The notes below the pieces were generated by a model. It did not search any database. It had not been told where the DNA came from and worked only from the letters and a program-made list of their open reading frames with translations. A program made the translations under genes and the position numbers. From positions 4,337 through 68,336 of IMG/VR virus record IMGVR_UViG_3300021964_000050: 64,000 nt of DNA. One strand, given 5' to 3'. The first letter of the stretch is position 1; every line of letters starts with the position of its first letter. Positions 19,378 through 28,175 of the stretch are shown here, piece by piece. This DNA is from a virus.

Positions 19378-19740
19378 TGTGGATAAACTTGTGGACAACT
19401 AATGGTGGGGGGGTCTCCCTGTGGATAACTTTACTTGACAAACCTGTCAACCCCTGTTCCACCCTTATTCCATAAGGGTTTCGTGACTTTGCGTTATCCA
19501 CAACCCCTGTGGACAGTGAATCGAACACCTGTTCGTCAAGGGGTGTCGATGTGACATTTGTCACGCTGAGTTATCCCCAGAACATATGTTCTTGTGGAAA
19601 TCGCCCCCGCAAACCCTTATTCCACCGTAGATAGGGGGGTCAAACCTGTGGAAAAGCCTGTGGAAGCCAATCTTTAGTGCTAAATGCGTTTGAGCCTTAT
19701 GCCGTAAGGGTTTCAGCAGTTATCCACTGGTTGTGGGAAA
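19378..19740. promoter_or_regulatory. DnaA-box cluster (~11 boxes; origin-like or datA-like)
   Basis: TGTGGATAA 19378 and 19420, TTATCCACA 19494, TGTGGACAA 19390, near-matches at 19508, 19571, 19593, 19647, 19659, 19720, 19732. Confidence 0.85.
19521..19592. promoter_or_regulatory. two LexA (SOS) box-like sites
   Basis: TCGAAC-ACCT-GTTCG 19521-19535; AGAAC-ATAT-GTTCT 19579-19592. Confidence 0.7.
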
Positions 19741-20122
19741 CGCGCTGGTAGCCCCCCGATAGCCAGCAAGCACTGCCACACCAGAATCGACCTACGCCGC
19801 TCAGCGGGGCTTCTGGGGGGCAATGCGGTGTCAAGTGACATTTGTCACACTTATCGACCTACGTTCGGGCCTACTGTGACATTTGTCACACCAATCACCG
19901 CTGTGTGGGTAGGAAACCGAACACTTGTACCCCCCACCCCCAGTTGCTATCACCCTGTGACCTTTGTCACATCCCCTCCCCATACATACATATGTCCTCT
20001 CTCCCATGACCTTTGGATTCGGGGGCGACCTTGGGGCGACCGAGGTGTGACAAACGTCACACAAACTTTCTTCCCCGACATGCACGAGTTGCTGGGTCGC
20101 CATGGCACCTTGGAACCATGAA

Positions 20123-20670
20123 CACCGGCCAGCACGGTCGGCCTCATACCGCTGGAGTGCACATGACAAAGCGCAAGCGACCTCCCCCAATGACGGGGGC
20201 GGGGACAGCACTCCCACTGACTACGAGTCATCACCTCACTGGGTATCCGGTGACGGTGGTGCCTGCGTATGTCTTGCCCACCTACGGGAACGACGGGGGC
20301 GGTACAACGAGCGGACAGAACGACGCTCCACATCATTCACATCTGCGTGCAGGACTTCCCCTTGGCTGGGGAGCACTTCGGTGGCCTGCACTCACGACGT
20401 ACTACAGACCTGCGGAACTCTTACCGCCACCAACCCATCGGATGCCCGAGTGTTGGGGGCGACCACGAGCAACGAGATCGACCACTACGTCCGACAGCAA
20501 CGGCAACGACGGCATCACCACCGTCCGACTGTTCGTAAAGCACGCAGGCATGAGTCAGTCAGTCCCCTTGGCAGGGGACAAGGTGACGACGACTCAGCAC
20601 CCTCGCCGGAGGGTGCGCCCACCATTCACTGACGTCAGCCGGTGCATGGTGGGGGCACACTCCGGTGCCC
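20123..20670 (+). ncRNA. candidate large structured RNA (~550 nt)
   Basis: more than 12 abutting helices, including a 10-bp long-range pair 20259-20268/20542-20551 and a C(UUCG)G loop; no credible ORF. Confidence 0.6.
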
Positions 20671-20697
20671 ATCCCACAAGCCTGAGGAGGCAACACC

Positions 20698-21024
20698 ATG
20701 GAAGCAACCATCTCAATCACCCTCACCGACCAAGAGGCCGAGGACATCCTCGTCACCGCCTTGGAAGGGGGCATCAACTACTGGGCAGACGTCATCTCAT
20801 CCGGTCGCAACGACGGCGTGCTGATGGCGCACATTCGCCCCACCGAAGGGGACGACTTCGAGCCAATGCTCATCCACCCCGGCCACATCCAGCAGGGCGT
20901 CGACCGGCTCTGCGCCAGCGAGTGCCAGTGGCATGTCACTGACCTACTCAACGACAACGCCGACGCCACCACCGCCGACGTCATCGTGCAGTTCGCAGTG
21001 CTTGGTGACATCATCTTCGGATGA
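20698..21024 (+). CDS. early hypothetical protein
   Basis: GAGGAGG RBS; ALEGGINYW..DA..AD.I.Q.A.LG.I.FG phage family pattern. Confidence 0.8.
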   Translation: MEATISITLTDQEAEDILVTALEGGINYWADVISSGRNDGVLMAHIRPTEGDDFEPMLIHPGHIQQGVDRLCASECQWHVTDLLNDNADATTADVIVQFAVLGDIIFG

Positions 21025-21082
21025 CAGGACGAAACACCCGCAAGGGTGTCACGGGGTGGTAGCCCCGTCTGATGAGTCCATC
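21020..21082 (+). ncRNA. type II hammerhead ribozyme
   Basis: GGAC-GAAA-CACCC(GCAA)GGGUG-UC^ACGGGG(UGGUAG)CCCCGU-CUGAUGA-GUCC; full core and three stems; predicted cleavage after C21050. Confidence 0.93.
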
Positions 21083-21107
21083 AGCCCACGAGCCTTAGGA
21101 GGCCACC

Positions 21108-21314
21108 ATGCAAGTAACCGTCAACCGCCAGCAACTCGCCCACAACGCCCTGCGCCGTCGTGCCGATGGTATGCGCCGTGAGATCGACGCCTTCATCGAC
21201 GCCTGCGAGGGCATGGACGTCGATGAGGTGGCCTACGCCATCGTTGACCTTCGTGACGCCTTCGACCGATTCCGCAAGGCCGGTATCAACCTCGTGAAGG
21301 AGGCCAACGCATGA
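21108..21314 (+). CDS. early hypothetical protein
   Basis: AGGAGG RBS, biased codons. Confidence 0.75.
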   Translation: MQVTVNRQQLAHNALRRRADGMRREIDAFIDACEGMDVDEVAYAIVDLRDAFDRFRKAGINLVKEANA

Positions 21315-21429
21315 CCGGCAACCAAGGTCACAAGCCCATCCGACGCCCCATCGACGCCACGGCCTCACGGTTCGTGGCATCGGGGCGTCACCACGCCCAG
21401 CACGGAAGCAAACCCACCAAGGAGAAGAA

Positions 21430-22092
21430 ATGAACGCCATGACCAACCGCCAACAGTCCCTCATCCACCGCCTCTGCAATGAGCGGATGGGGGCGCTGAC
21501 CACCACTCACGCCCACCTGCTCCAGCAGGAGATCGTCACCACTCGTGACGCCTCGCAACTCATCGACGCCCTCATGGCAGTGCCGACTGACCCCGTTGAG
21601 GTCGATCAGGCCGAGCAGGGGCGCATTGAGGCTCTCAAGGCCAACGTGCCCAACCTCTCCCCCAAGGACGCCACCTTCGCCCTGTCGCTCATCAACCAGT
21701 TCGACAGCAAGGGTCGCCTGAGTGAGAAGCAGTGGCCTCACGTTGACCGCCTCGCACGGCCTCAGGCTGAGGCCAAGTGCGACCCTCAACCGTTGGACAT
21801 CGTAGACGTCGATGGCGACCACTACCTCGTTGCCCGTAGCCAGCCAGAGCGTGGTGGTCGCTTGTACGCCAAGCGCCTCATCGACGGCAAATGGTCGTAC
21901 GAGGCCGGTGGCATCGACCGTGCCCGTCAGGGTCATATCCTGACCGGTGACGCTCTCGCAGAGTTCGCCAGCAAGCAAGGCCACACTCACGGTCACTGCG
22001 TGTTCTGCGGTCTTGAGTTGACCGACGAGCGTTCAGTCACCGTTGGCTACGGCAAGCACTGTGCCGAGCGACGCTCCTTGCCTTGGGGCTGA
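21430..22092 (+). CDS. DUF6011-like Zn-binding protein
   Basis: C-terminal CVFCGLELTDERSV..GYG.HCA; LSEKQW motif. Confidence 0.75.
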   Translation: MNAMTNRQQSLIHRLCNERMGALTTTHAHLLQQEIVTTRDASQLIDALMAVPTDPVEVDQAEQGRIEALKANVPNLSPKDATFALSLINQFDSKGRLSEKQWPHVDRLARPQAEAKCDPQPLDIVDVDGDHYLVARSQPERGGRLYAKRLIDGKWSYEAGGIDRARQGHILTGDALAEFASKQGHTHGHCVFCGLELTDERSVTVGYGKHCAERRSLPWG

Positions 22093-22158
22093 GTCATCGA
22101 CTACCGTCCATATCCCATCAACCCATACCCATACCAACCCGAGCCTCAGGAGGCCACC

Positions 22159-23625
22159 ATGTCCACACTCGCAGACCTACTCGCTGGCAACGCCAGCACC
22201 CCGGCGCCATCGACGTTCACTGACGTCACGCCGGTTGACCTCGCCATTCCCCTGATGGACTTCCAGCAGGAGGCAGTAGCCCACGCCCTTCGCCCAGTGC
22301 AGGGTTCGCCCTACGCCTACCTCGCACTGGACATGGGTCTCGGCAAGACCCCCTGTGGCATCGCCATCATCGCTTCGTGCCACAAGGCGCAGGGTGGCAA
22401 GCACCTCGTCGTGGTGCCTCCGTCGCTCCGCATCAACTGGGAGCGTGAGTTCGCCAAGTTCGCACCGTGGCTCTCAGTCGCCATCCTGACCGGCACCAAG
22501 CCATCGGCACTGCCCGATGTCGATGTGCTCATCATCGGTGACAGCACTGTCGCCCACTGGGAGTTGGCTCTCATGGGCAAGGTTGAGTCCCTCGTGGTCG
22601 ATGAGGCACACCGCCACAAGAACGGCAAGAGCAAGCGTGCCAAGGCACTCGCCAACATCGCCAACACCGTGCGGGGTGCCCGTGTTCTGCTCTCAGGCAC
22701 GCCGACTCCCAACGGTCGCCACTACGAACTGGCCTCGCAGTTCGACATCCTTGGCAAGCGTGCTTGGAACGACATCGGTGGCGTCGGCACCTTCTGGGGG
22801 CGCTTCTGCCCCAAGACCGACGCATGGGGCGGGCGTGGCAACGCTGAGGGCGATGTCCTGCACGCCTTCATGACCGACACCTTCATGATGCGCCGTCGCC
22901 GTGATGACGTCATCGACCTCCCCAACAAGGGTCGGTCGGCAGTGTCGATGGAGTGCGCTGGCAAGGCCAGTAAGGACTACATCTCCGCTGAGAATGACCT
23001 CATCGCATGGCTCTCCGATCAGGGTCGTGACACCCGTGGCGCTGAGCGTGCCGAAGCCCTCGTCCGCATGAACACTCTCCGACGCCTCGCTGGTGAGGCC
23101 AAGGTTCAGGCAGTCGTGGAACACGTCAAGGAACTGCTGGAGGACGGCAACGGCGGTGTGTTCGTCGTCGCTGAGCACAAGGACGTCATGGACAGGCTCA
23201 TGATGGGTCTCGCTAAGTACGCCCCCGTCAGTGTTCAGGGTGGCATGTCCGACAGTGCCAAGCAGGAGGCAGTCGATGCCTTCTCATCAGGCCAGAGCCG
23301 GGTCATGGTCGGCCAGATCATTGCGGCTGGTGTCGGCCTCACGCTCCACGGCAACGGTCTCAACCACCGTGTCGTCGTCGTCCAACTCCCATGGACACCG
23401 GCTGACCTCCGTCAGGCAGAAGATCGCCTGCACCGCATCGGTCAGACCAACGACGTCGAAGTCGAAGTGGCACTCGCCCACATCGACGGTCGCTGGACTA
23501 TCGACGAGCGTCTCTGGACAATGCTGGAGAGCAAGAACTTCGCCACCGGCGAGGTCATCGACGGCTCCGGTGATTACCTGCTGGACAACAGCACCGCTGA
23601 CGGTGTGTTGGACACCTACCGCTGA
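22159..23625 (+). CDS. SNF2-family helicase / annealing ATPase
   Basis: DMGLGKT, VVDEAH, LSGTP, QAEDRLHRIGQ. Confidence 0.9.
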   Translation: MSTLADLLAGNASTPAPSTFTDVTPVDLAIPLMDFQQEAVAHALRPVQGSPYAYLALDMGLGKTPCGIAIIASCHKAQGGKHLVVVPPSLRINWEREFAKFAPWLSVAILTGTKPSALPDVDVLIIGDSTVAHWELALMGKVESLVVDEAHRHKNGKSKRAKALANIANTVRGARVLLSGTPTPNGRHYELASQFDILGKRAWNDIGGVGTFWGRFCPKTDAWGGRGNAEGDVLHAFMTDTFMMRRRRDDVIDLPNKGRSAVSMECAGKASKDYISAENDLIAWLSDQGRDTRGAERAEALVRMNTLRRLAGEAKVQAVVEHVKELLEDGNGGVFVVAEHKDVMDRLMMGLAKYAPVSVQGGMSDSAKQEAVDAFSSGQSRVMVGQIIAAGVGLTLHGNGLNHRVVVVQLPWTPADLRQAEDRLHRIGQTNDVEVEVALAHIDGRWTIDERLWTMLESKNFATGEVIDGSGDYLLDNSTADGVLDTYR

Positions 23626-23703
23626 CAACTGGAGGGGGCGCAAGCCCCCTCCCCTTACCCATACCAAACCCATACCAATCAAGTCCTAAGGAGGACAACT
23701 GAC

Positions 23704-24006
23704 ATGACCACCACCTACAACCACGAGGCCGTCGAACTTGGTCTCTACATCGACAATGACCACGCCACCTACGAACTCCGGTGGGAGTACTTCGCCACGC
23801 TGGACAAGCACTGGCAGAGGGGGCGCTTCTCCAAGGAGCGTGCCCTCGTCCTGCTGGAGCGCTACGTCCAAGAGGGTGCCAAGCGCCACCACGCTGAGCA
23901 CGGCACCCCCGGCGACAAGTGGTACACGATCTTCACGCCAGTCACACGGCGTGAGGTAGCCGAGGCACTGTTGGACGAATACATCGACCAGCAACAGATT
24001 CACTGA
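23704..24006 (+). CDS. early hypothetical protein
   Basis: AAGGAGG RBS; ELGLYIDND phage family pattern. Confidence 0.75.
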   Translation: MTTTYNHEAVELGLYIDNDHATYELRWEYFATLDKHWQRGRFSKERALVLLERYVQEGAKRHHAEHGTPGDKWYTIFTPVTRREVAEALLDEYIDQQQIH

Positions 24007-24020
24007 CGTCGCCGGGGTGC

Positions 24021-24050
24021 TTGACCAGTGTCACACCCCGATGACATACT
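24021..24050 (+). promoter_or_regulatory. housekeeping-sigma promoter
   Basis: TTGACC-N18-CATACT. Confidence 0.5.
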
Positions 24051-24106
24051 CCATTCATACCCAACCCATACCAACACCAATCCCAACCAGCCCAAGGAGG
24101 GCAATC

Positions 24107-25393
24107 ATGCAAGTCAAGCACCTACAAGCCGGACTCCAAGTCCACATCATCGACGGGCCGATGCAAGGCTTCACCGCCACCGTCATCGACCCGAACGTCA
24201 TCCCTGACGGCCAGCCCAACCAGCGCAAGGTCGCTGTCGATATCAACGGTGCCGGTGCCAACGGCTCCAACCTCCGGTCGTACATCCTGCCCCGGCAGTT
24301 GGACGTCCAGCCGGTAGCCCCGGCACCTGCCCCGATGCCGGTCGCAGTGCCAACTGCCGACAGCGCTGACCTGACGGTCATCCGTAACGGCGAGGTTGAG
24401 GTCGCAGAGCCGATCACTGACCCGATGCACCCAGCGTTCGACTCATGGCGTCCTGACCCTGCCATCGTCAAGGAGTACGTCAGCCGTACCCTTCCCGGTG
24501 GCTTGTCCGACATCGACTACCTGCTCCACCTCCGTGACATGCGTGACGACAACGGGTACTCACCCAACGTCGCCTTCGTCGGAGAGACGCAGAGTGGCAA
24601 GACCATGCTCGTCCGGGTGCTCGCAGTGCTCAGCGCATTGCGTGACGGTATGCCCAAGCCATACCCCGTCTTTACCCTCAACGGCGAGGTTGGTATCTCG
24701 TCGTACGACCTCTTCGGTCAGCCATCCACCGTCGTCATCGACGGTGTGGAGACCATCGTGTGGTGCGAGGGTCTTGTTCCCCTCGCCCTCAAGTGTGGTG
24801 GCTTCCTCTACCTAGACGAGTGGAACGCCGTTGCCAGCGGTCAGGCCGTCGCCCTGCACACCGTGCTTGACGACCGTCGTGAGTTCACCAACCGCCAGCG
24901 TGCGCTCCCCATCCCCGGTCACCCTCATGGGTTCATGCCGGAGACGGTCAAGGCTCATCCAAACACTTGGATTATCTCCACCATCAACCCCGGCTACAAG
25001 GGGACGCAAGCCATGGCAGAAGCCAGCACCAACCGCTTCCGGTGGGTGCCGTGGGACTACGACGACACCGTGGAGGCCACGCTGGTTCCCAGCGCCACCA
25101 TCCGCTCGTTCGGCAAGGCTCTGCGTGAGGCTCGTGCCCAGCGTGCCCTGACCTTGCCAGTCGGTTCGTCAGCGCTCCGTCGCCTCAACGAGGACTGCGC
25201 CACATTCGGTGTGGACAGTGCCATGTGGTCATTCACCGCCATGTTCCCACCTGCGGAGCGTGAGCGTGTGCAGACCATCGCTGAGGACAGGGGCTTCATT
25301 GACCTGCTGAAGGCTGAGTACCCCAACCCAGTGTTCGCACCTGTTCAGGACGAGGCTGACCAGCCTGTCGCTGAGGATGCCAACGCCTTCTAA
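24107..25393 (+). CDS. MoxR/CbbQ/CobS-like AAA+ ATPase
   Basis: Walker A GETQSGKT, Walker B LYLDEWN, TINPGY.GT, NRF; AAGGAGG RBS before ATG 24107. Confidence 0.85.
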   Translation: MQVKHLQAGLQVHIIDGPMQGFTATVIDPNVIPDGQPNQRKVAVDINGAGANGSNLRSYILPRQLDVQPVAPAPAPMPVAVPTADSADLTVIRNGEVEVAEPITDPMHPAFDSWRPDPAIVKEYVSRTLPGGLSDIDYLLHLRDMRDDNGYSPNVAFVGETQSGKTMLVRVLAVLSALRDGMPKPYPVFTLNGEVGISSYDLFGQPSTVVIDGVETIVWCEGLVPLALKCGGFLYLDEWNAVASGQAVALHTVLDDRREFTNRQRALPIPGHPHGFMPETVKAHPNTWIISTINPGYKGTQAMAEASTNRFRWVPWDYDDTVEATLVPSATIRSFGKALREARAQRALTLPVGSSALRRLNEDCATFGVDSAMWSFTAMFPPAERERVQTIAEDRGFIDLLKAEYPNPVFAPVQDEADQPVAEDANAF

Positions 25394-25470
25394 CCCTGAG
25401 AGGGGGGCGCTACGCCCCCCTCTCCCATACCCCTCTCATACCCATTCCGTATCATCCCAAAGGAGTCATC

Positions 25471-27546
25471 ATGGCTAAGACCAAGAACTACAACAAGCAC
25501 CTCCGCCCACAGCGTGGGCTGGGTCAGGCAGTCAGCCGTCAGCGCAAGCGTGCTACCGATCAACTCAAGCGTGAGTCTCAGAACCGCCGTGACCGTGAGC
25601 GTGCCATGGCTCGTGAGTTGTTAGACCAGCGTCGTCGTCAGAACCCACAACAGCGTGCGGAGCATCTGTGGCGACACAACGTACTCAAGGCCACCATCGA
25701 CCATCAGACTGCCGTCATGAAGTCGTACGGCATCAACGTGCCAGTCAAGACTTCCTTCTCTTCCATGTTGTGGGGGCGTCAAAAGAGTCTCAAGGCTTGG
25801 ACAGACCACCAGCAGATTGTCATTCAGTTCCCCGAACATCTGTTGCCGGTTGACCGCACCAACACCGATGCTCTCGTGGACGGCATCGCCACCTTGCGTG
25901 GCGTGTTCCAACACGAGTTGGGTCACATCCGGTTCACCACCCCGTTCCTACAACTGGGCTGGGTAGACTTCACTGACGTCCCGATGCGAGAACTGCACTG
26001 GCCGTGGAACTGTCTGGAAGATCAGCGCATGGAGTCGGCAGTCGTTGCTGACGTGCCTCGTCTGGCTTCGTACTTCACGACGATGATCGTGGAGCACATC
26101 GTCAAGGGCAACGATGCTGACCGCTCGTGGCTCTTGCTCGCCGGTCGGACGTACCTACCCACCATCCTGCGCCAGCAGTCTCGTGACCTCTTCGTAAGCA
26201 TCTACGGAGAATCGTTGGCACGGCGTTGGGAGTCTGAGGTGCAGACGTACATCGGTGCCAAGTCCCACGACGAACTCCGTGAGTCTGTCATCCGTGCCCA
26301 TGCTCTTCTGCAAGAGATCAAGGCTGACATGCCGTCGCCATCAGTTGATGAGCACCACGGAGAGACTGGTCAGTCTGACCCCTCTGATAGTGCTACCGAT
26401 ATCGACAACGACGACTTGGAGAAGGACGAGTCGGGTGACAGCACCGGCACTGCCGATGGCACCGGCGATGAGTCAGACGACGAGGGCGCTGGTGCCGGTG
26501 AGTCCGGCAACGAGTCAGACGCTGACAGCACCACGTCATCCAGTGACGGCGACGAGTCCAGCGACGGCGACGATGGTCAGTCCACCAGTGCCAACGCCGA
26601 CGCTGGTGAGTCCGATCAGGATGCTCAAGCGCAGTCATCGGGCAACGGTGCCACCACTGGCTCTCTTGACACGAGCAACATCCGTAGAGAGATGGAGAGC
26701 ATCATGCGGGAGGCGATAGACGAAGCCATCAACGAGATGCGTGCAGACAGCACCAACAACGAAATCCTCGTTGAGGCTAACGAACTCAGCAATGATACGG
26801 GTTCCATTCCATTCCTTACCGGCCACTCAGCACCTATGTCTGCCGATATGCAGGCAGACGCAGAGGCGCTGGCTGTCGGCATGGAGAACGCACTCAATGA
26901 CTTCGTGTCCGCTAGCCAGCCGGTGTGGATGTCTCATCAGGAGCACGGCATCATCGACCCCATCGCCTTCCGTACCAAGTCGGTCGGTGACATGGACTAC
27001 CGCCGTGGTCTCACCGGAGACTTCACCGAAGGTCTTGACATCCACGTCTCGCTTCTCTGCGACGCATCGGTGTCGATGGAGTACGAGCCGATGCAGGCTC
27101 TGTCCAAGGTCATCTACGCCACCTCCAAGGCGTGCAACAACCTTGGCATCGGCCTGACCACCACGTTGTGGTCATCAGACAGGGACACCTACCGCCTCAG
27201 TCCAGAGGATGTCGGTGCGCCCGTTGTCTACGAAACGCTTGGCGGTACTGACCCCACTGAAGCGCTGGATGATCTGGACAACCACGACATCGGTAACGTG
27301 GAGAACCATCTCGTCATCATCTTCACCGATGGTGACTGGAACAGCGACTTCCCCGGTGTTCATCAGTGGGAGCGCCCCGGTCGCCACACTGTACTCGTGC
27401 AATACAACGGGTACTGGCAGAACATGACCGGCGTGCTGGGACGCACCAGCGACACTCGTGGGTGCGACGAGGCGTTCCGTATCGGAGACGTACTCCAACT
27501 TCCGGTGGAGATGACCAGCGCCATCGCCGGTCTGCTCTCCAAGTGA
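25471..27546 (+). CDS. vWA-domain protein with N-terminal metallopeptidase-like domain (CobT-like partner)
   Basis: HELGH, NCLED.R.E, acidic linker, MIDAS DASVS, GGT, FTDG. Confidence 0.82.
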   Translation: MAKTKNYNKHLRPQRGLGQAVSRQRKRATDQLKRESQNRRDRERAMARELLDQRRRQNPQQRAEHLWRHNVLKATIDHQTAVMKSYGINVPVKTSFSSMLWGRQKSLKAWTDHQQIVIQFPEHLLPVDRTNTDALVDGIATLRGVFQHELGHIRFTTPFLQLGWVDFTDVPMRELHWPWNCLEDQRMESAVVADVPRLASYFTTMIVEHIVKGNDADRSWLLLAGRTYLPTILRQQSRDLFVSIYGESLARRWESEVQTYIGAKSHDELRESVIRAHALLQEIKADMPSPSVDEHHGETGQSDPSDSATDIDNDDLEKDESGDSTGTADGTGDESDDEGAGAGESGNESDADSTTSSSDGDESSDGDDGQSTSANADAGESDQDAQAQSSGNGATTGSLDTSNIRREMESIMREAIDEAINEMRADSTNNEILVEANELSNDTGSIPFLTGHSAPMSADMQADAEALAVGMENALNDFVSASQPVWMSHQEHGIIDPIAFRTKSVGDMDYRRGLTGDFTEGLDIHVSLLCDASVSMEYEPMQALSKVIYATSKACNNLGIGLTTTLWSSDRDTYRLSPEDVGAPVVYETLGGTDPTEALDDLDNHDIGNVENHLVIIFTDGDWNSDFPGVHQWERPGRHTVLVQYNGYWQNMTGVLGRTSDTRGCDEAFRIGDVLQLPVEMTSAIAGLLSK

Positions 27547-27638
27547 CAGAGGTGAGGGGTGTGGATGTCACACCCCTCACCTACTGTTGCGTTATCAACC
27601 CATACCCATACCAACCCATCCCAAACAAGGAGAATCCA

Positions 27639-28175
27639 ATGCCCAACTGGTGCTCAAACCACATCACTATCTCTTCGACCAACGAAGAGTCCATCGACCA
27701 CATCTGGAACGTCATCCACGCTGATGACGACCTCAACCTCATGGGCTTGCGCCCTCGCCCCGATGACGTCGGGGACGGCTGGCACGGCTGGTCAGTCCAA
27801 CACTGGGGTACCAAGTGGTCGCTGGACATCCACAACATCGACCTCGCTGAGTTCTTCGGTGAGTTCACCATCAGCATCGGTGCCGACTCAGCGTGGTCGC
27901 CACCACTGGAACTGCTGGCGTACATCACTGAGCGTTTCACTGACGTCAAAGCCGACATCTCATTCCACGAGCAAGGCATGGACTTCATAGGGTTCGCCCA
28001 CTGTGAGGACGGTCAATACGTCCTCAGCGATGGCTCCATCTCTGACAACCTCCCAGCCGACTTCGACTGGGACAGTGACGACGCCCAAGATGTCGTCAAT
28101 GACACCCTTGACATGTTGCTTGACCAACATGAGACACACGTAATGACCCAACTAACAATGAAAGCAGGTAACTGA
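27639..28175 (+). CDS. DUF1281/YubB ferredoxin-like protein
   Basis: MPNWCSN, W..W...WGTKW, SAWSPP, E.GM.F.G. Confidence 0.8.
   Translation: MPNWCSNHITISSTNEESIDHIWNVIHADDDLNLMGLRPRPDDVGDGWHGWSVQHWGTKWSLDIHNIDLAEFFGEFTISIGADSAWSPPLELLAYITERFTDVKADISFHEQGMDFIGFAHCEDGQYVLSDGSISDNLPADFDWDSDDAQDVVNDTLDMLLDQHETHVMTQLTMKAGN

Follow-up and report, generated by a model that had tools for sequence, protein, structure and literature searches.

A hairpin-rich non-coding leader preceding the early genes of an uncultivated estuarine phage: a candidate structured RNA restricted to one lineage

The early operon of an uncultivated, estuarine phage is preceded by a long non-coding stretch that probably gives rise to a hairpin-rich RNA. 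The DNA analyzed (the window) comprises 64,000 nucleotides (nt), i.e., bases 4337-68336 of the 68,336-base IMG/VR virus record IMGVR_UViG_3300021964_000050, which is rated ~72% complete. On the + strand of the window the leader extends over 20064-20697, beginning just behind the fifth and last operator-like palindrome (20047-20060) and reaching as far as the start codon of gene 1, thereby filling the space up to the first ribosome-binding site (RBS) of the early operon. We consider it quite probable that the leader is a structured + strand RNA. The more specific reading, i.e., that it is a long, non-coding and orphan 5' leader RNA of the early/replication operon acting in cis, is given a probability of roughly 0.45; as a part of this reading the leader is best described as a predicted string of ~10 mostly local hairpins and not as one closed, ornate domain. 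A first-pass annotation had proposed a ~550-nt multi-domain structured RNA at the head of the early region (20123-20670), and its placement is borne out: the stretch is non-coding, stands first in the + strand early/replication operon and directly follows the five GTGACnnnnGTCAC palindromes.

The leader stretch does not encode a protein. Two long open reading frames (ORFs) overlap it (20013-20942 and 20102-20632) and, as had been noted before, they are devoid of codon bias: the GC content by codon position is flat with 0.62/0.61/0.62 compared to ~0.65/0.44/0.77 in five downstream genes. The overlapping ORFs contain no Pfam domain and have no tblastn match in 50,697 phage records. In natural variants of the leader, 22 substitutions are found within 20123-20670, of which 5, 8 and 8 are synonymous in the three frames, i.e., there is no synonymous excess, and insertions and deletions of -1, +15 or +8, and -4 nt keep no reading frame. 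The sole relative of the 176-amino acid (aa) ORF among 5.8 billion proteins, in a search confined to proteins of 0.55-1.75 times the query length in which 2 of 136 and 2 of 58 candidates passed, is a variant ORF cluster (P0003), whose three nearly identical members of 164 aa were derived from short contigs of metagenomes. P0003 starts in the frame of the ORF at 20102 and runs after residue 29 in the frame of the ORF at 20013, which is just what a 1-nt deletion in the variant contigs predicts.

The strongest evidence for an RNA structure comes from these variants. Contigs of four sequencing runs were compared over 19900-21200, and close variants were found in three of them (X9, X18 and X19). 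A contig of X9 reaching from 19978 to 20677 has 32 substitutions plus 21 inserted or deleted letters, overlapping subsets of which occur in X18 and X19. The 22 substitutions of the X9 variant within 20123-20670 were mapped, as a difference table and not as an alignment, onto the minimum-energy structure of the reference sequence alone (168 pairs). Eight of them form four compensatory pairs, one retains a G·U pair (20433), nine are unpaired and four break pairs (20199, 20473, 20475 and 20533). Upon random reassignment of the substitutions to positions with the same base, 0.096 compensatory pairs are obtained on average; two are reached in 0.4% and four in none of 20,000 trials. The compensatory pairs are located in the hairpins P2b (one), P6 (one) and P10 (two). 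Several hairpins of the leader are under selection to stay paired. Moreover, the divergence of the leader in the X19 lineage amounts to ~4.0-4.4% (19 of 480 and 8 of 181 positions), compared with 10.1% (55 of 544) over 20657-21200. The G·U intermediates favor the + strand as the one that is read as RNA: the substitution 20578 A>G, which occurs alone in X18 and X19, gives U·G on the + strand and A-C on the - strand, and the G·U pair at 20433/20453 forms on the + strand only. When the fold of the - strand is used, three compensatory changes and eight broken pairs are obtained, compared to four and four for the + strand. The claim of a conserved structure is confined to local hairpins, with four compensatory double changes.

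The variants also delimit the structured part, which begins after ~20106, since the 5' end is densely changed at 20093-20105 in a way that disrupts its predicted pairing. A pairing of 20085-20111 with 20580-20605, predicted for a longer construct, was rejected, as it is broken by substitutions at 20093-20097. The hairpins that follow were all read on the + strand. P1 (20125-20141, CCGGCC/GGUCGG) has a mean pair probability of 0.97 and is invariant in the variants. P2 (20154-20214), in which GGAGUGC and GCACUCC enclose two small hairpins, reaches a pair probability of 0.36 and competes with a pairing of 20150-59 with 20658-67 (0.56); its local fold has an energy of -26.9 kcal/mol (z -2.2), and the variant changes at 20162, 20169 and 20170 lie in its unpaired part. 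Hairpin P2b (20183-20199, (U)CCCCC-AAUGAC-GGGGG; pair probability 0.96) is supported by covariation, as 20186 C>G is accompanied by 20197 G>C in X9 and X18. Combined with the loss of 1 nt at 20185, the change 20199 G>A can be read as a re-registration of the same helix with a closing U20183-A pair. P4 (20236-20253, UCACUGG-GUAU-CCGGUGA) is predicted with a pair probability of 1.00 and falls within one of two invariant stretches, which are 110 nt and 94 nt long; P4 lies in the former.

Toward the center, P6 (20309-20328, GAGCG...CGCUC; pair probability 0.96) again shows covariation, 20311 G>A occurring with 20326 C>U in X9 and X19, and has a variable loop, into which 15 nt are inserted in X9 and 8 nt in X19. 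A three-way junction is predicted at 20347-20391, with GUGCAGG/CCUGCAC around UUCCCC-UUGGCU-GGGGAG and CAC-UUCG-GUG. It is part of the 94-nt invariant stretch; its helices have pair probabilities of 0.72, 0.96 and 0.82, and its local fold (-24.0 kcal/mol, z -2.1) is equaled by 7 of 200 shuffles. Hairpin P10 (20551-20596) consists of an outer helix UGAGUC/GACUCA and an inner hairpin GUCCCCU-UGGC-AGGGGAC. Two of its pairs covary: X9, X18 and X19 all combine 20553 A>G with 20594 U>C, and X9 in addition combines 20563 U>C with 20578 A>G, of which X18 and X19 have the latter alone. Overall, P1, P2b, P4, P6, P7a and P12 show pair probabilities of at least 0.96 and the outer helix of P10 of 0.89. The segment GGAG(N)GUGC occurs twice and its partner GCAC(N)CUCC three times in the leader.

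All complementary segments listed in the first-pass annotation are present where it had placed them, two of them with one G·U pair each (TCACTGG/CCGGTGA and GTGCCTGCGT/ACGCAGGCAT). The repeated hairpin it described, CCCCTTGGCWGGGG, indeed occurs twice in the 64 kb (20358 and 20564), compared with an expectation of 0.08 and with none of 100 shuffles containing two. The long-range architecture fared differently. The outer closing helix (CACCGG at 20123 with CCGGTG at 20662) has a mean pair probability of 0.00. The 10-bp helix proposed to close a 290-nt domain (20259/20542) is predicted at a pair probability of 0.65, with a competitor (20343-50/20540-47) at 0.27; a single closed domain is unsupported, because no variant position lies in either long-range helix. 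These helices, the three-way junction and the long hairpin at the 3' end are all found in invariant stretches. Thus, a single multi-domain architecture with long-range closing helices receives no covariation support, and one of its closures is predicted at a probability of zero.

That the stretch folds better than dinucleotide shuffles is correct to a moderate degree, with a minimum free energy of 20123-20670 of -239.4 kcal/mol compared to -211.3 ± 7.5 kcal/mol for 100 shuffles (z -3.75); the reverse complement reaches z -3.31. Perfect inverted repeats of 7 nt number 22 (13.0 ± 4.5 in shuffles; reached by 4.3% of 300) and those of 8 nt number 8 (3.4 in shuffles; reached by 6.7% of 300). In 150-nt windows, z ranges from -0.1 to -2.4 over 20075-20599 and from -3.7 to -4.8 over 20525-20749, and downstream coding windows range from +0.95 to -3.5. 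The windows starting at 20300, 20375 and 20450, which cover a long, irregular and weakly predicted central hairpin (20396-20491, + strand), score -0.1 to -1.5 and lie within the range of coding windows. In the central hairpin, 20433 A>G retains its pair as G·U. By far the most stable part are the 123 nt at the 3' end (20548-20670; -73.5 kcal/mol, z -6.6), which comprise P10 and a 64-nt hairpin. Folding energy alone is insufficient to establish a 550-nt multi-domain fold.

This 64-nt hairpin (20604-20667, + strand) is near-perfect, with ~27 pairs and small internal loops, and ends 18 nt before the Shine-Dalgarno sequence of gene 1. Folded alone it reaches -47.5 kcal/mol (z -6.6; none of 200 shuffles as good), and it coincides with the inverted repeat I2, which has 24-nt arms of 88% complementarity. 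It competes with a small hairpin, GCACCCUC-GCCG-GAGGGUGC (20597-20616), the predicted alternatives for 20609 being a pairing with 20597 or with 20654. Rfam returns only microRNA-precursor models here, far below threshold, which reflects the shape of the hairpin. With a predicted duplex of ~20 bp or more in near-continuous pairing, as is typical for RNase III-type sites, the hairpin has the shape of a putative processing or stability element of that type. In one X9 contig 20001 seems to be fused to 20597 with the loss of 595 nt; this junction is unreliable, its shorter side comprising just 24 nt at 80% likeness. The loose ends of X18 contigs include 20595-20629 and 20450-20675, the latter continuing into a different first gene. 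These are unverified signs that the 3' hairpin module may move on its own.

The tip of the long hairpin is formed by an exact copy of the 11-mer TCACTGACGTC (20626-20636, + strand), the first of five (20626, 22217, 24000, 25970 and 27937). All are on the + strand, 1.6-2.0 kb apart and confined to the GC-rich early operon; the remainder of the 68-kb record and the reverse strand contain none. Besides the copy at the hairpin tip, three are part of genes, where they are read in the frame F-T-D-V, and one coincides partly with a stop codon; the copy in the SNF2 gene is retained in a related locus, L025. A common RNA fold around the five copies was sought and not found.

Searches for known families and for homologues of the leader were negative in the collections covered. 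With the 4227 models of Rfam 15, which presumably include GOLLD, ROOL, HEARO, OLE, raiA, group I and II introns, transfer-messenger RNA (tmRNA), RNase P, riboswitches and C4, no match was obtained at gathering thresholds in the whole window. At E<=10 on 20060-20700 only microRNA-precursor and small nucleolar RNA models appear, with 10-26 bits compared to cut-offs of 40-168. Together with the absence of ARAGORN hits, this agrees with the earlier statement that the stretch does not match tmRNA, RNase P or an intron. A riboswitch, an intron or a second ribozyme was likewise rejected for the leader, with no such match in Rfam at E<=10 and no second CUGAUGA core seen by eye in the stretches that were read. 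A distant-mode blastn search with 19700-21100 against the 50,697 phage records returned nothing but 68 nt of gene 1 that match Microbacterium phage Tempo.

In IMG/VR, no relatives were recovered with the gene 1 protein (16 stretches), the DUF6011 protein of the same operon (5 stretches), the leader translated in its open frame (as a six-peptide degenerate probe; 5 stretches) or a junction 26-mer (no hits). The hairpin motif TCCCCTTGGCWGGGGA was matched once in each of 20 loci, and in all of them the similarity ended within 16-20 nt. A DUF6011 alignment gave 43 stretches and 6 loci, none of them leader-like by blastn or nhmmer. The SNF2 protein returned 3 stretches with two distant relatives (L003 and L004), and an operator 16-mer returned 53 loci with one true relative, L054. 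In JGI metagenomes, a scan for gene 1 returned 156 stretches, of which one was a relative (L025) that lacks the leader and the hammerhead ribozyme described below, and a scan of genome contigs with the translated leader gave 75 stretches and no relative. In six related loci (with L083 left out), Rfam gave no match at E<=0.01. As a whole, the collections searched contain no relative of the leader outside a population that is at least ~93-95% identical. L054, together with L079, represents a 99-kb IMG/VR contig that shares the operator palindrome and encodes DUF6011 (38% identity) and SNF2 (56-61% identity) proteins in the same order. Since the leader is absent from L054 and L025, it appears to be a lineage-specific accessory at a recombination-prone cassette boundary. 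A tblastn comparison of the leader with the genes that occupy its place in L054 or L025 revealed no protein similarity in any frame. A remnant of those genes was rejected on this ground. As judged by eye, the region 4905-6570 of L054 carries a hairpin GTCTCA-N3-TGAGAC at five spots, i.e., in its leader, in the three following spacers and just inside the DUF6011 gene; at the RNA level (GUCUCA-N3-UGAGAC) it may be a processing or protein-binding signal where the window phage has the hammerhead.

Upstream of the early operon lies a gene-poor region of 1.1-1.4 kb. It contains a cluster of DnaA-box-like sites (TTATCCACA; 19378-19728, unstranded) with 7 of the 14 matches with at most one mismatch in the window, including three of the four exact ones; the total in the window is not above chance, the clustering being local. 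Next to it, the five exact GTGACnnnnGTCAC palindromes (unstranded, at 19551, 19835, 19876, 19957 and 20047) all fall within 19551-20060 and are the only exact matches in the 64 kb. They are read as putative operators of a divergent control region; no repressor gene was recognized. The cluster and the palindromes also precede the early operon of the 99-kb phage L054/L079 (L054 4190-4840), with six exact DnaA boxes in L054 in the same place and the same palindrome upstream of its early operon. Judged from its motifs, the control region may be an origin or a DnaA-responsive switch beside operators.

For the cis-acting leader the following course of events can be proposed. Transcription would start in the operator-controlled region just upstream and yield a + strand RNA of ~590-630 nt with serial hairpins. 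This RNA would act in cis on processing, stability or elongation of the early transcript, and the competing GGAG(N)GUGC/GCAC(N)CUCC pairings are predicted as elements that could gate elongation or processing. Cleavage at the RNase III-type hairpin and by a hammerhead after gene 1 would result in a discrete gene 1 mRNA and a separate leader RNA of ~580 nt.

Several observations weigh against this reading. The variant contigs are closely related and of low depth (3-17x), and each double change is probably one event. Compensatory support is confined to the local hairpins P2b, P6 and P10. In the central hairpin, predicted pairs are lost through 20473 C>A and 20475 A>C. The region 20595-20682 shows no variant difference, hence the long 3' hairpin has no covariation support. 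The opposite strand of 20123-20670 folds nearly as well (z -3.31), and the center (20300-20600) is no better than its coding neighbors in 150-nt windows. No sigma-70-like promoter was found upstream of the leader in the scanned region 19400-21500. Furthermore, the homology of L054 to the window stops at the last operator and is followed by a ~115-nt hairpin leader and a 237-aa gene, and the gene 1 homologue of L025 is preceded by small ORFs with the same RBS cassette and not by the leader; judged from these loci, the element is apparently dispensable for this type of operon.

Alternatively, the RNA itself might be the product, which we regard as rather unlikely: it would be released and act in trans as a stable structured non-coding RNA, either as a decoy or sponge for host defense or an RNA-binding factor or as a regulator of phage or host transcripts, similar to leader-derived immunity RNAs. 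It would be the first thing transcribed on entry if the promoter is at the operators, it is flanked by candidate processing signals (the long hairpin and the hammerhead after gene 1), and the invariant 110- and 94-nt stretches, of which the second has a weak local fold, could be binding surfaces instead of helices. It is also accessory and absent from relatives, as anti-defense cargo usually is. However, no target, partner or repeated decoy-like unit and no terminator-like 3' end of the leader were found, and there is no family beyond one population. An extreme form of this proposal is a long shot: a free-standing RNA of ~580 nt without relatives, cut at the long hairpin, with the hammerhead trimming the following mRNA, that would act in trans at the start of infection as a decoy against nucleic-acid-sensing or RNA-targeting defense or as a takeover RNA, and that would represent a new class of large phage non-coding RNA.

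It is unlikely that the stretch acts as DNA instead, i.e., as part of a replication origin or as an array bound by proteins; the palindromes would then serve for binding or extrusion, and transcription would be incidental. The DnaA-box-like cluster just upstream, present in L054 too, and the replication-type genes that follow would fit such a role. So would TCACTGACGTC, which recurs without a common RNA fold on one strand as if it were recognized linearly or as a duplex, and the similar z-scores of both strands. However, the compensatory changes swap pairs (C-G to G-C, A-T to G-C) and thereby keep the hairpin but not a fixed protein half-site, and the wobble intermediates are compatible with RNA of one strand only; both observations make a role at the DNA level less likely. 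In addition, the stretch has a GC content of 62% without an AT-rich unwinding element or direct-repeat iterons, and L054 possesses DnaA boxes and operators without the leader element. Finally, the stretch might have no specific role and might be a neutral spacer or decayed gene in a GC-rich acquired module with chance hairpins. Its composition equals that of the neighboring coding DNA (62% GC, the same A>T and C>G skew), the excess of inverted repeats is marginal (p ~0.04-0.07), the central windows are unremarkable and relatives lack it. Such a spacer would not be expected to carry four compensatory pairs (0.1 expected) or to diverge less than the adjoining gene, and neither leftover codon periodicity nor similarity to the L054 and L025 genes points to a decayed gene; with the z of -6.6 of the 3' hairpins, we consider this explanation improbable.

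Known leaders of phage operons provide a frame for the cis-acting leader. In the leader of the lambda N operon, nutL and an RNase III-cleaved hairpin are located ahead of the N ribosome-binding site. The leader described here resembles it in being non-coding, in lying directly downstream of a region that is putatively operator-controlled and in its long duplex just before the first Shine-Dalgarno sequence; it differs by its length of ~630 nt with ~10 hairpins, by the absence of a recognizable nut/boxB site and of an identified N-like protein, and by the lack of sequence similarity. The put RNAs of HK022 are two-stem-loop elements of ~70 nt, i.e., structured RNAs at the start of early operons, that mediate antitermination in cis by acting on the transcribing polymerase. 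The position at the very start of an early phage operon is shared, but the leader here is much longer and a scan downstream of it shows no excess of terminators. P4 CI RNA and c4 of P1/P7, which we take to be the Rfam C4 family, are small RNAs cut from an early leader, in which repeated complementary segments pair alternatively. Repeated complementary segments with alternative pairings are also predicted here, without covariation, but the leader has no Rfam match at gathering thresholds. GOLLD and ROOL are associated with phages and prophages and are widespread and deeply conserved, with many covarying long-range helices. The leader is similar to these large ornate RNAs (PMC12286853) in being several hundred nt long and non-coding, but it has no relatives beyond ~5% divergence and only its local hairpins are supported. 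The likeness to GOLLD and ROOL drawn in the first-pass annotation is not sustained, as there is no family and no relative outside the population. Judged by these comparisons, the leader belongs to none of the named phage leader types and to no Rfam family.

The first gene after the leader, gene 1 (20698-21024, + strand; 108 aa), is preceded by GAGGAGG at 20685-20691 and has a GC content by codon position of 0.63/0.38/0.83. Its product matches phrog_2355 (E 4.6e-19), a family without an assigned function, and has a 75% identical homologue in L025. Three bases after its stop codon a type II hammerhead ribozyme is predicted (21027-21090, + strand), with cleavage predicted after C21050 (GUC^A). 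Its score for RF02276 is 34.3 bits (E from 1e-5 to 4e-3 according to the search space), i.e., below the gathering cut-off of 37, and a scan at that cut-off therefore overlooks it. In cmscan the full model is aligned (positions 1-66 of 66), and by eye the core (CUGAUGA, GAAA and GUC) can be recognized along with each of the three stems, stems I and III being closed and stem II open with 4 bp. The segment folds as a three-way junction (-26.6 kcal/mol, z -3.5), and GUGG in loop I can pair with CCAC in the 3' tail. Such a pseudoknot is a consensus feature of type II hammerheads, and hammerheads occur in phage intergenic regions and flank genes in polycistronic prophage RNAs, according to PMC3088659. 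Compared with the examples given there, 21027-21090 has the full core, the open stem II and the possible pseudoknot and sits between two operon genes; it differs from the flanked prophage genes in being a single copy, so that gene 1 is not flanked by two ribozymes. The ribozyme is kept with small changes in the variant contigs and is absent from L025 and L079. By its sequence it appears to be a complete type II hammerhead, for which self-cleavage is predicted. The translation-initiation regions of gene 1 and gene 2 (20670-20712 and 21082-21122) form an 84% identical repeat (CCCACnAGCCTnAGGAGGCnAC..ATG), i.e., a 43-nt RBS cassette, which also precedes genes in L025 and appears in the loose end of a variant contig; it looks like a boundary sequence for cassette shuffling.

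The operon that follows is tightly packed on the + strand and forms a GC-rich island (20001-28000; 58-63% GC, with A>T and C>G on the + strand) in a window of mostly 50-57% GC, suggesting that the whole module including the leader may have been acquired from a higher-GC phage. It comprises gene 1 (108 aa, phrog_2355), a 68-aa gene, the DUF6011 protein, an SNF2-family helicase, a 100-aa gene, an AAA_5 ATPase and a 691-aa protein, the last distantly resembling CobT-like proteins of Gordonia phages. The nearest cultured relatives of the early-operon proteins are found in Microbacterium and Gordonia phages, i.e., the early genes are distantly like those of actinobacterial phages. The runs that contain the stretch are estuary and marine metagenomes; among the 20 runs listed, none is recorded as RNA. 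ARAGORN detects no transfer RNA or tmRNA in the window or in the relative L025. A GNRA-capped hairpin (GGAGGGGGC-GCAA-GCCCCCUCC) is found 3' of the SNF2 stop codon (23632-23653, + strand). The sole sigma-70-like promoter match in the island is TTGACC-18-CATACT with a TG (24021-24050, + strand), which adjoins the third copy of the 11-mer; the number of such matches in the scanned region is not above chance.

Antitermination, immunity RNAs and processing signals were all discovered in the early leaders of phages, and to our knowledge nearly every example described so far stems from a small number of cultured coliphages. In the present case, the first kilobase of the early transcript of an uncultivated phage contains three candidate RNA-level devices, i.e., an unusually long, hairpin-rich leader whose pairing is maintained by compensatory changes, a duplex shaped like a microRNA precursor and a hammerhead. 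As it stands, the leader is a lineage-restricted element and not yet a discovery. If the processing model is true, the operon would represent a compact natural pairing of a host RNase site and a ribozyme that carve a polycistronic transcript, and if the leader acts in trans, a large orphan non-coding RNA would be added to the phage repertoire.

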